DNA from: Bacilli bacterium
Lineage (GTDB): Bacteria > Bacillota_I > Bacilli_A > RF39 > UBA660
DNA: 64,000 nt
Direction: 5' to 3'
Assembly: GCA_016283075.1 (NCBI GenBank)
Contig: JAEEMF010000026.1
Coordinates: 5,270 to 69,269, forward strand
Part shown: piece after piece, positions 5,535 to 8,069 of the stretch
Layout: each line of letters begins with the position of its first letter
How positions within the stretch are numbered: the first letter of the stretch is position 1
Notes under the pieces: model-generated
Told to the model about the DNA's origin: nothing
What the model saw: the letters and a program-made list of their open reading frames with translations, nothing else
Database searches by the model: none
Program-made: the position numbers and the translations under genes

Positions 5535-5750
5535 AATAAATATTTTGATTAGGACACGACTTATTTATAGTTTATTAAAGAGAGCTACCATTTGGTGTAA
5601 GGTAGTATAAATATTTATAAGCCACTACCTATGAATAGAACTCGAAAGAGATTTCCGGTTATTCCGTTATAATACAAATTAAGGTATAAATTAGGATGGT
5701 ACCGCGTATATACGCTCCTTACATAGAAATATGTAAGGAGTTTTTATTTT
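5535..5750 (+). promoter_or_regulatory. T-box riboswitch leader (threonyl-tRNA responsive) with intrinsic terminator
   Basis: Canonical T-box sequence AATTAGGATGGTACCGCG at 5689-5706. Terminator hairpin CTCCTTACAT..ATGTAAGGAG plus a T-run at 5715-5750, overlapping the T-box so that an antiterminator alternative is possible. Lies upstream of thrS, and ACC/ACU codons are present in the putative specifier region. Confidence 0.75.
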
Positions 5751-5763
5751 AGGGGGAAAAAGT

Positions 5764-6315
5764 ATGAGCGACAAATTTTACGTTGATTTAGGAGAAACTG
5801 TTGGAATTAGAGAGTTTATGGATACATATTTAAAAGTACCATATACTTGGAAGGGTATTTTAACTCATGAAAGAATGATTGAATTTCTAGAATTCTTTGG
5901 GAAGGAATTACCAGTAGTTGTTCCAATAAGAGATATTACAACCGAAGAAGTATTAAAAGGTAATATCGTATTTGTTAGAGCAGAAAGTTGTCAAAAAAAA
6001 CTTGTAGAAAAGAAAGATGGAAAATTACATACAGTTCTTGATGTAGATTTTAAAAGAAGAAAAGGAAAACTAACAGCATATCAAAATCCACTTAATAAAA
6101 GGTTAGGAAGTTCTTTCTTAGATGAACTAGCTGCCATAACAAGAAATAGTATTGAAAATGGAGTTAGAGAAAAACTAATGAAAGGAGAAGAAGTAGAAAT
6201 AGAACATTTCTATTCTGATCCTGGATTCCAGCTTAGAATAGAAAGAACAAATAATAAATATGCTGATCAAAAAGGAAGAAATAAAAAGAGAAAAGAGGAG
6301 GATTATGAATGGTAA
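5764..6315 (+). CDS. Hypothetical 183-aa protein co-transcribed between the T-box leader and thrS
   Basis: ORF with RBS GGGGGAAAAAG. Overlaps the thrS start by 7 nt (translational coupling). Not TGS-like. Lys/Arg-rich C-terminus. Confidence 0.55.
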   Translation: MSDKFYVDLGETVGIREFMDTYLKVPYTWKGILTHERMIEFLEFFGKELPVVVPIRDITTEEVLKGNIVFVRAESCQKKLVEKKDGKLHTVLDVDFKRRKGKLTAYQNPLNKRLGSSFLDELAAITRNSIENGVREKLMKGEEVEIEHFYSDPGFQLRIERTNNKYADQKGRNKKRKEEDYEW

Positions 6316-8069
6316 ATTTTAAAGAAGATGAACACTTATATAATTTAAATCACTCTTGTGCACATTTACTTGCACAAGCAGTAAAACACTTATATCCAGA
6401 AGCTAAGTTCTGGGTAGGACCAGTAGTAGAAGAAGGATTCTATTATGATATTGATTTAGGAGATAAAGTTATTACTGAAGATGATATTCCAGCTATTGAA
6501 AGAGAAATGAAAAAATGTGCTAAAGATGCTAAGAATATTATTAGAAGAGAAATATCTAAAGAAGAAGCACTTGAAATGTTTAAAGATGATCCATATAAAC
6601 TAGATTTAATTAATCGTATGGATGAAGATGAAACTGTTATATCATGTTATTCTCAAGGAGACTTTACTGATCTTTGTAGAGGAGGACATGTTGAAAATAC
6701 AAAACTTCTAAAGAACTTTAAATTACTTAAATTAGCTGGTGCTTACTGGAAAGGTGATTCTAAAAACAAAATGCTTCAAAGAATCTATGGTGTATGTTTT
6801 GATACTCCGGAAGAACTTGAAGCACACTTAAATGAACTTGAAGAAGCTAAAGCAAGAGATCACCGTAAAATAGGTAAAGACTTAGGTATTTATATGATGA
6901 GTGATTTAGTTGGAAGAGGACTTCCAATGTATTTACCTAACGGATTTACTTTATGGAATATACTTGAAAATTATATAAGAGATAAAGAAATTAAAAGAGG
7001 ATATGTACATGTACAAACTCCTCCACTAGGTAATGTTAATTTATATAAAACAAGTGGACACTTAGAACATTATAAAGATTCAATGTTCCCAATTATGGAA
7101 GTTGAAGATGAAGAATATGTACTTCGTCCTATGAACTGTCCACATCATATGGTAATGTATTCTAATTCACTTCATTCTTATAAAGAATTACCAATTAGAA
7201 TTGCTGAAATAGCAAGAGATTGTAGATATGAATCATCTGGTTCATTAAAGGGAATTGAAAGAGTTAGAACATTCTGTCAAAATGACTGTCATATTTTCTG
7301 TACTCCAGAACAAATTGAATCAGAGTTTAAAGGAGTTGTAGATTTAATACTTGAAGTTTATAAAGAATTAAATATTACAGATTATAAATTTGAACTTAGT
7401 TTAAGAGATCCAGAAGATAAAGTTAAATATCATCAAGATGATGAAATGTGGGATTTAGCAGAAAATAAATTAAGAGAAGTATTAAAAGACTTGAATATTG
7501 ATTATGTTGAAAAAATAGGTGAAGCAGCATTCTACGGACCAAAACTAGATGTTCAAATTAAACCAGCTGTTGGTAATGAAGTAACACTTTCAACATGTCA
7601 GTTAGATTTCTGCTTACCAAGTAAATTTGATTTAAAATATGTTGATAGTGATGGAAGTAAGAAAACTCCAGTAGTTATTCATAGAGCAATTCTAGGTACT
7701 TTAGATAGATTTATTGCTTTATATCTAGAAATGACAAAAGGAAATCTTCCTTTATGGCTAGCACCAAAACAAGTAATAGTACTTCCTGTTAATAATGAAT
7801 ATCATGAAGAATATGCAAATGAAATTTACAAAGAATTATTTGATGAAGATATAAGAGTTGAACTTGATAATCGTGAAGAAAAACTTGGTTATCGTATGCG
7901 TGAAGCTCAAATGAGAAAAGTTCCATATTCACTTGTACTTGGTGATAAAGAAAGAGATAATAAAGAAGTTACTTATCGTAAATATGGTAGTGAAGAAAAA
8001 GTTACTGTATCTAAAGATGAATTCTTAAAATTATTAAAAGAAGAAATAAAATCAAAAGGATTAAAATAA
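6309..8069 (+). CDS. thrS: Threonine--tRNA ligase lacking the N-terminal TGS (N1) domain
   Basis: Editing-domain HxxxH motif 'HSCAHLL' at the very N-terminus and 'CRGGH'. Class II catalytic motifs (RDHRKIG, 'MNCPHH', 'FTQDD'-like 'FCQNDCHIF'). Anticodon-binding C-terminus. 586 aa, against ~640 aa for canonical ThrRS. Confidence 0.9.
   Translation: MVNFKEDEHLYNLNHSCAHLLAQAVKHLYPEAKFWVGPVVEEGFYYDIDLGDKVITEDDIPAIEREMKKCAKDAKNIIRREISKEEALEMFKDDPYKLDLINRMDEDETVISCYSQGDFTDLCRGGHVENTKLLKNFKLLKLAGAYWKGDSKNKMLQRIYGVCFDTPEELEAHLNELEEAKARDHRKIGKDLGIYMMSDLVGRGLPMYLPNGFTLWNILENYIRDKEIKRGYVHVQTPPLGNVNLYKTSGHLEHYKDSMFPIMEVEDEEYVLRPMNCPHHMVMYSNSLHSYKELPIRIAEIARDCRYESSGSLKGIERVRTFCQNDCHIFCTPEQIESEFKGVVDLILEVYKELNITDYKFELSLRDPEDKVKYHQDDEMWDLAENKLREVLKDLNIDYVEKIGEAAFYGPKLDVQIKPAVGNEVTLSTCQLDFCLPSKFDLKYVDSDGSKKTPVVIHRAILGTLDRFIALYLEMTKGNLPLWLAPKQVIVLPVNNEYHEEYANEIYKELFDEDIRVELDNREEKLGYRMREAQMRKVPYSLVLGDKERDNKEVTYRKYGSEEKVTVSKDEFLKLLKEEIKSKGLK

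Follow-up and report, generated by a model that had tools for sequence, protein, structure and literature searches.

The thrS operon and its relatives

The window analysed here is a stretch of 64,000 nucleotides (nt) from a Bacilli bacterium (assembly GCA_016283075.1, contig JAEEMF010000026.1, positions 5,270 to 69,269), and the positions given below without a locus name refer to it. It carries a thrS gene, encoding threonyl-tRNA synthetase (ThrRS), which is preceded by a threonine T-box leader and, inserted between the two, by an open reading frame (ORF) of 183 amino acids, here named ORF-X, that belongs to an undescribed protein family. All the features of this operon are located on the forward strand. 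The promoter is of the sigma-70 type (TTGACA-16 nt-TATAAT, 5498-5525); it matches the consensus at 12 of 12 positions, is the best site in the region 5400-8300 and is kept in L001, the closest long relative of the window (97% nucleotide identity upstream). The T-box leader (5536-5722; RF00230, 92.0 bits, E 1.6e-20) is followed by an intrinsic terminator (5714-5749) composed of a 12-bp stem (hairpin 5714-5741) with a GAAA loop and of a T-run. ORF-X (5764-6315) starts with an ATG located 7 nt downstream of the Shine-Dalgarno sequence GGGGG (5752-5756), and thrS (6309-8069) codes for a protein of 586 amino acids. At the junction of the two genes (6296-6315), the Shine-Dalgarno sequence of thrS, AGGAGG (6296-6301), lies inside the 3' end of ORF-X, 7 nt upstream of the thrS ATG (6309-6311), and the stop codon TAA of ORF-X occupies positions 6313-6315, so that the two genes overlap by 7 nt (6309-6315). 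The position of the 183-amino-acid ORF and its overlap with thrS had been read in the same way in the first-pass annotation, made from the sequence of the window alone. The proposal that ORF-X is a conserved gene, co-transcribed and closely coupled with thrS, is borne out by its identical position in relatives, by the overlap and by purifying selection.

One genome per GTDB species was scanned with the ThrRS of the window, and 80 loci were obtained. Among these, 79 have the 5' end of thrS on the contig, and 71 of the 79 are of the Bacilli type. The source organisms are uncultured rumen or gut Bacilli, deposited as Bacilli, Erysipelotrichaceae, Tenericutes, Candidatus Coprovivens or Clostridium sp. 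CAG:710, to which Lachnospira and [Lactobacillus] rogosae are added. The host of the window is itself an uncultured, low-GC (27%) member of the Bacilli, and the Clostridia to which it had been related in the first-pass annotation are not its group.

Two other interpretations of ORF-X were rejected. A fusion of ORF-X with ThrRS by programmed frameshift is not compatible with the absence of a slippery site at the junction, nor with the variation between loci in frame and in gap (-23 to +18 nt). An attenuator leader peptide of the thrL type is a short ORF, usually below 30 codons, containing a stretch of consecutive regulatory codons; ORF-X has 183 codons, threonine represents 5.5% of its residues and the longest threonine run is of two residues (TT, 59-60).

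A T-box leader specific for threonine

T-box leaders are textbook regulators found directly ahead of synthetase or amino-acid genes. The window contains no T-box other than the leader at 5536-5722. Its score is 1 bit under the Rfam gathering threshold (93 bits), so that a default Rfam scan misses it while a scan based on the E-value detects it; near-identical leaders in the loci L002 to L004 reach 95.5 bits with RF00230. The base of stem I is formed by the pairing of UAGG (5550-5553) with CCUA (5628-5631). The specifier ACU (5624-5626), followed by A5627, is localized directly 5' of the stem I closing helix. A second triplet that might be taken for the specifier, ACC, falls within the helix. 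The T-box sequence AGGAUGGUACCGCG (5693-5706) includes the UGGU bulge at 5697-5700.

A leader profile built from seven leaders matches upstream of thrS in 66 of the 71 related Bacilli loci. In the alignment of 74 related leaders, the specifier ACU and the bulge UGGUACC are invariant, and the base next to the specifier is A in 71 sequences and C in three. The strands of the stem I closing helix covary (AGG/CCU, AAG/CUU, AGA/UCU, GGG/CCC, GAG/CUC and UGG/CCA). From 25 diverse leaders, RNAalifold predicted 30 pairs, and compensatory changes were observed in 22 of them. The downstream gene, assigned to thrS by TIGR00418, agrees with a threonine specifier. The threonine specificity attributed to the leader by the first-pass annotation is thus supported by the invariant specifier and by the covariation of stem I.

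The predicted antiterminator pairs AGGA (5693-5696) with UCCU (5716-5719) and GCG (5704-5706) with CGC (5713-5715). The terminator hairpin (5714-5741) is the only terminator-like site in the region 5400-8300 and is also present in the minimum-free-energy fold. Its 5' arm shares nucleotides with the antiterminator 3' arm and would compete for it, and on this base-pairing the two structures are predicted to be mutually exclusive.

The leader resembles the T-box of the thrS and thrZ genes of the Bacillus subtilis type by its stem I specifier loop, the threonine codon followed by a purine, the UGGN bulge, the competing terminator and the regulation of thrS. It differs in that a whole protein-coding gene separates the terminator from thrS. 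In B. subtilis thrS the specifier is ACC, whereas it is ACU in the window.

A ThrRS devoid of the TGS domain

The product of thrS is recognized by TIGR00418 with 709 bits (cutoff 384) and by the Pfam families tRNA_SAD, tRNA-synt_2b and HGTP_anticodon, and the Pfam scan of this protein detected no TGS domain. Residues 7-583 align with residues 67-642 of the Staphylococcus aureus ThrRS (1nyq; 733 bits, E 1.9e-219), and residue 2 aligns with residue 60 of the Escherichia coli ThrRS (1qf6). As in these canonical enzymes, the protein displays an N2 editing domain with the HxxxH and CxxxH motifs (HSCAH and CRGGH, both intact), a class II catalytic core and an anticodon-binding domain; unlike them, it is devoid of the N1 (TGS) domain of about 60 residues. 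The absence of TGS, noticed in the first-pass annotation, is therefore supported by alignment and by Pfam, but the protein does not begin directly at the HSCAHLL motif as had been described, since it starts 14 residues before HSCAH.

All of the 79 close relatives with a complete 5' end also lack TGS, and at most 36 in-frame codons are found upstream of their thrS. On these sequences, the loss of TGS is clade-wide and a TGS-less ThrRS is the norm in the clade. The NCBI equivalog model for thrS (TIGR00418) itself begins after TGS. The first 25 residues of ThrRS share the pattern M[VI]N[FI]KEDE.L..LNHSCAHL, whichever gene precedes thrS. No second thrS was found within the window. T-box control of thrS and ThrRS reduced at the N-terminus are both already known kinds.

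Some Clostridia carry a related gene. In Lachnospira and [Lactobacillus] rogosae (L080 to L090), thrS is TGS-less, its product is 69-70% identical to that of the window, and in a neighbour-joining tree it nests inside the clade of uncultured Bacilli. A T-box is localized directly upstream of thrS in L085 (3686-5752) and L088 (3668-5749); in L080 the only T-box match is on the opposite strand. These observations suggest that a T-box together with thrS was transferred between classes, into Lachnospira.

The ORF-X protein family

A word-indexed search detected two close homologues of ORF-X, with 94% and 73% identity, both flanked by the same T-box upstream and a TGS-less thrS downstream. An exhaustive search with phmmer, over 1.84 billion representative sequences, recovered 29 clusters of 98 to 188 amino acids, the distant members having 24-47% identity to the protein of the window. 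These distant members are also preceded by a T-box (66-96 bits) and followed by a thrS whose product has 583-589 amino acids, with stop and start codons overlapping or separated by a few nt, and the further members recovered with a broader profile have the same placement. By clustering and two iterations of a hidden Markov model (HMM), 24 of the ORFs located between T-box and thrS were gathered in an ORF-X superfamily (the window, 5 metagenome loci and 18 loci of GTDB species). Four branches were distinguished, named X-a, X-b, X-c and X-d. X-b is acidic (isoelectric point, pI, of about 5) with an N-terminal extension, and most of its members have only 17-19% identity to ORF-X and were recognized by profile; the pI is of 9-10 in most members of the superfamily, X-a included. 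In databases, the relatives of ORF-X are labelled at most "hypothetical protein".

The N-terminal domain of ORF-X (residues ~5-113) is globular. His35 is invariant, and Gly66, Val71, Tyr106 and Pro109 are near-invariant. Across the family, the N-terminal domain, some 80 residues long, contains the motifs I-x-E-F-M-x-x-Y-L, L-T-H and G-x-x-L-L-V; beyond it are found Y-x-N-P, a helical L-x-x-x-R-x-x-x-L and a basic tail with N-R-x-K, which many members possess. In ORF-X, residues 115-139 form a long helix and residues 147-183 a disordered tail rich in Lys and Arg. With an alignment of 35 sequences, AlphaFold gave a predicted local distance difference test score (pLDDT) of 84-96 for residues 11-90, the two blocks that follow having 68 and 91; the model obtained from three sequences (pLDDT 36) was useless. 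Three helices (15-22, 35-44 and 60-64) and two strands (68-72 and 103-107) are predicted, and the hairpin 75-95 is an insertion restricted to the subgroup of the window protein. The model thus depicts a compact domain of three helices plus a hairpin, with the basic disordered tail behind it. This helix-helix-helix-hairpin order is loosely winged-helix-like, a remark limited to the topology of the model. A match to the PDB profile of the winged helix of NSE3 (E 0.011) disappeared with a broader profile and was treated as spurious.

No relative of ORF-X was found in Pfam, NCBIfam, PHROGs, PADLOC or the sequences of the PDB, and no Pfam match was obtained for 35 and then for 51 members of the family. 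Six different PADLOC models were each matched by one of the 51 members (best E 5e-4), without any consistent defence match. The Foldseek comparison of the model with the PDB, which holds full-length ThrRS, and with BFVD gave nothing better than E 0.06, with template modelling scores below 0.25. The window protein had no tblastn match in phage or plasmid collections, and the pattern scans of IMG/VR and JGI contigs with an ORF-X sub-alignment returned nothing; an origin in a mobile element was rejected on the basis of the phage, plasmid and IMG/VR results.

The ratio of non-synonymous to synonymous substitutions (dN/dS) of ORF-X is 0.36 against its 73% homologue (L001), with 0.27 for thrS in the same comparison. 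In eight other pairs of species this ratio ranges from 0.08 to 0.66 for ORF-X and from 0.03 to 0.18 for thrS. ORF-X is a real gene, fast-evolving under purifying selection, and its family had not been described before.

The interval between the T-box and thrS

The distance between the T-box and thrS displays two forms: either it is below 70 nt and contains no ORF (14 species), or it is filled exactly by one ORF of the plus strand. Among the 71 species loci of the Bacilli type, this slot is without an ORF in 14, is occupied by unrelated genes in about 35 and by a member of the ORF-X family in about 20. All the ORF-X members with a readable context (L001 to L010, about 18 GTDB species, and P0037, P0039 and P0043) are located in the slot; altogether, relatives of 13-75% identity were found in the same place at every readable context, representing about 30 loci. 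The first-pass annotation had made its hypothesis depend on the conservation of ORF-X upstream of thrS. ORF-X is indeed present there in a minority of relatives, but in the remainder it is replaced or absent.

The other occupants belong to at least 10 unrelated families. A metallo-beta-lactamase (MBL) fold hydrolase (Pfam Lactamase_B_3) is found in 9 species, RNase R in three (L023 1734-4004, L050 1684-4008 and L054 1687-3999) and short coiled-coil ORFs of 51-88 amino acids in about 10. Four other small groups of 2-3 members each and several singleton ORFs have no Pfam match. These occupants are not diverged forms of ORF-X: the hhalign probability was at most 0.5% for all nine groups tried, including L014, which is similar by eye. 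Occupants of every family end at the start of thrS: among the 57 loci with an ORF in the slot, 40 have this ORF overlapping thrS and 16 have it stopping 0-15 nt before thrS. thrS retains its own Shine-Dalgarno sequence. The interval is thus a hypervariable slot for one gene with conserved flanks, and ORF-X, as its commonest and most widely scattered occupant, is probably ancestral. In the literature and the family libraries, we found no description of a protein family confined between a T-box and its synthetase gene, nor of a hypervariable one-gene slot at this place, which here spans about 70 species.

An HMM scan of all the ORFs of the window and of 94 loci detected ORF-X in the slot only, apart from one weak match in L084 (contig JBAMOY010000001.1, circular, 1.2 Mb). 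The matching ORF displays the motifs EFF..FFG, CH, GKIILV and AYYRP, and the slot of L084 itself holds a coiled-coil ORF of 65 amino acids. A second T-box-like element is located just downstream of thrS in L046 (6933-7106), L056 (5831-6011) and L071 (5784-5950). In L071, a tRNA gene (3496-3569), and not a T-box, precedes the slot ORF.

Turnover of the slot

Species with ORF-X occur throughout the neighbour-joining tree of ThrRS, in its deepest branches as well as at its tips, and the occupant is often not the same in sister species. In blastn comparisons of sister pairs with different occupants, the homology extends through the T-box, is interrupted at the terminator and starts again 0-38 nt ahead of thrS, a pattern of cassette-like replacement between conserved flanks.

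The ORF-X proteins themselves diverge rapidly, with 34-53% identity in pairs where ThrRS is at least 90% identical. The dN of ORF-X is 10-25 times that of thrS in most of the species pairs tested, and its dS is up to 4 times higher. This divergence fits weak constraint combined with the exchange of old alleles, and is not in itself a proof of positive selection. The comparison of the window (5488-9100) with L001 (9726-13360) reveals a mosaic of blocks with 92-100% and with about 75-80% nucleotide identity, whose breakpoints fall inside ORF-X and thrS: the identity is 92-100% in the T-box, about 75% in the N-terminal half of ORF-X, again 92-100% in the C-terminal half of ORF-X and the first ~600 nt of thrS, and about 78% in the rest of thrS. 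Such a mosaic indicates recent recombination within the operon.

Possible roles of ORF-X

We regard it as somewhat probable that these observations reflect an operon of ORF-X and thrS run by the T-box, in which ORF-X represents an undescribed, slot-confined family and acts as a dispensable accessory protein. The strong promoter drives a leader that reads tRNA-Thr through the ACU specifier and the UGGU bulge; uncharged tRNA-Thr would favour the formation of the antiterminator, and transcription would then proceed into a bicistronic message. ORF-X is translated from its own ribosome-binding site up to its end, 4 nt after the thrS AUG. From the thrS Shine-Dalgarno sequence in the last codons of ORF-X and from the overlap of stop and start codons, it follows that ORF-X and ThrRS are made together. 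More tentatively, ORF-X may bind RNA (tRNA or ribosome) or ThrRS and act when the charging of tRNA-Thr is low, as suggested by the mostly basic composition, the disordered Lys/Arg tail and the exclusive linkage to thrS.

Several observations weigh against an accessory role. Homology assigns no function to ORF-X. The protein is dispensable, as the T-box directly precedes thrS in 14 species and about 35 others carry unrelated occupants. The N-termini of ThrRS are the same for every occupant and give no sign of a co-evolving interface. The acidic X-b branch weakens a general reading as nucleic-acid-binding protein. The tight coupling is common to all the occupants, including RNase R and the MBL-fold hydrolase, and may serve only to keep thrS expressed. 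Finally, the ORF of L084 (3114-3599), a divergent homologue of ORF-X (E 0.03), is located upstream of the T-box and not after it; it may be the relic of a rearrangement.

Some of these points lead to the idea that the occupants are passengers of a permissive slot, unrelated to the function of ThrRS and kept by a starvation-responsive expression obtained for free, only coupled and terminator-free inserts surviving since thrS must be expressed. The ten or more unrelated families, housekeeping-type RNase R and MBL-fold hydrolase among them, the coupling of every occupant to thrS, the clean cassette boundaries and the indifference of ThrRS to the occupant all agree with it. A passenger would nevertheless be expected elsewhere too, whereas the ORF-X superfamily was confined to the thrS locus in our searches despite a divergence to less than 20% identity. 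Given the acidic X-b, the dispensability and the variety of occupants, we consider the passenger hypothesis nearly as likely as the accessory role, without holding it to be probable. A translation through the slot could also be selected in cis, by reinitiation setting the ThrRS output or by protection of the message 5' end, the protein being irrelevant. The identity of 34-53% between ORF-X proteins whose ThrRS are at least 90% identical would be expected in this case, as would the fact that unrelated ORFs and ORFs of 51-88 amino acids all end at the thrS start. Purifying selection, the invariant His and Y-x-N-P conserved across a deep divergence and the confidently predicted globular domain nevertheless speak against it, thrS has its own Shine-Dalgarno sequence and 14 species have no slot ORF at all, so that a purely cis-acting role appears improbable. 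That ORF-X is a chance ORF or an artefact of annotation, as an annotation never going beyond "hypothetical protein" could suggest, is refuted by conservation: 183 open codons are very unlikely to arise by chance at 27% GC, and the conserved position, the dN/dS below 1 and the 29 representative clusters leave this explanation practically no weight.

The first-pass annotation had linked the absence of TGS to ORF-X, seen as a trans-acting module supplying editing or tRNA binding, or else as a factor of threonine metabolism. Translational coupling and co-regulation would indeed suit a 1:1 partner replacing TGS (N1), or providing these activities in a stoichiometric complex with ThrRS, and the family is exclusively linked to TGS-less thrS. 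But TGS-less ThrRS occurs alongside ORF-X, alongside unrelated proteins and without any slot protein (in at least 14 sister species and in Lachnospira), which makes a stoichiometric partner unlikely, and the link between TGS loss and ORF-X finds no support, the N-termini of ThrRS being unchanged by the occupant. No TGS, DTD or tRNA_SAD signal was detected in the 51 members. The predicted fold has three helices and a hairpin rather than a beta-grasp, and Foldseek returned no match to ThrRS or TGS; the TGS, DTD-like and ThrRS-ed folds that had been proposed find no support in Pfam or NCBIfam either. An editing helper is unnecessary, because the editing site is intact in cis, and the thrS equivalog model starts after TGS. 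The trans-acting module is largely refuted, and what likelihood we leave to it is slight. Likewise, ORF-X matches no catalytic family that would make it an enzyme of threonine metabolism. A fission that would have split TGS off from thrS was also rejected: the part of ORF-X adjoining thrS is helical or disordered, and the protein resembles TGS neither in sequence nor in fold.

A more speculative proposal, to which we give a rather low probability, is that the slot is a dedicated cassette site for charging failure. Unrelated and fast-diverging effectors would be exchanged by recombination between the T-box and the 5' end of thrS and expressed only when the charging of tRNA-Thr collapses. ORF-X would be the founding occupant, with a role in conflict or stress such as countering a toxin, an antibiotic or a phage factor that targets ThrRS or tRNA-Thr, or silencing ribosomes in starvation. 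Such a site would explain alleles that seem older than their flanks and an amino-acid divergence 10-25 times that of thrS.

Conceptually, ORF-X, the presumed accessory protein, resembles the free-standing synthetase modules (archaeal ThrRS-ed, AlaX, YbaK/ProX, DTD, Arc1p/Trbp111) in being a small protein whose gene is linked to that of a synthetase; it differs from them by the lack of similarity in sequence or fold, by its dispensability and by its fast evolution. The slot is comparable to the variable hotspots of defence or accessory islands, where sister genomes exchange unrelated genes at one fixed position between conserved flanks. Unlike these hotspots, it holds exactly one ORF, is located inside a riboswitch unit, is coupled to an essential gene and contains no known defence family. 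An entire lineage of uncultured gut and rumen Bacilli has opened a one-gene slot within its T-box-thrS unit, and the value of this finding hinges on what ORF-X does. Should ORF-X prove to bind ThrRS, tRNA-Thr or ribosomes, it would represent a novel type of translation factor coupled to starvation; should the slot act as a recombinational cassette site, it would offer reduced genomes a means, new in kind, of wiring novel genes to the signal of amino-acid starvation.

Other genes of the window and of related loci

An RNB-domain gene (3427-5487), whose product has no Pfam match in its N-terminal 367 residues, is located just upstream of the T-box promoter. In L001, an additional gene (7355-9730) encoding 791 amino acids, with a weak prepilin N_methyl motif, lies between the RNB gene and the T-box; it is absent from the window. 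The ORFs 16660-20187, 22364-24589, 14097-15746 and 9916-11307 of the window (1175, 741, 549 and 463 amino acids, respectively) have no Pfam match at E<=1e-5. The ORF 49323-51701 encodes a protein of 792 amino acids in which an amino-acid-kinase domain (residues 3-282) is fused to a DcuC-type anaerobic C4-dicarboxylate carrier (residues 320-787). Finally, a PGK RNA motif (RF03040; 67 bits, which exceeds the gathering score) was detected in L006 (11615-11706), upstream of a glycolytic-enzyme gene.

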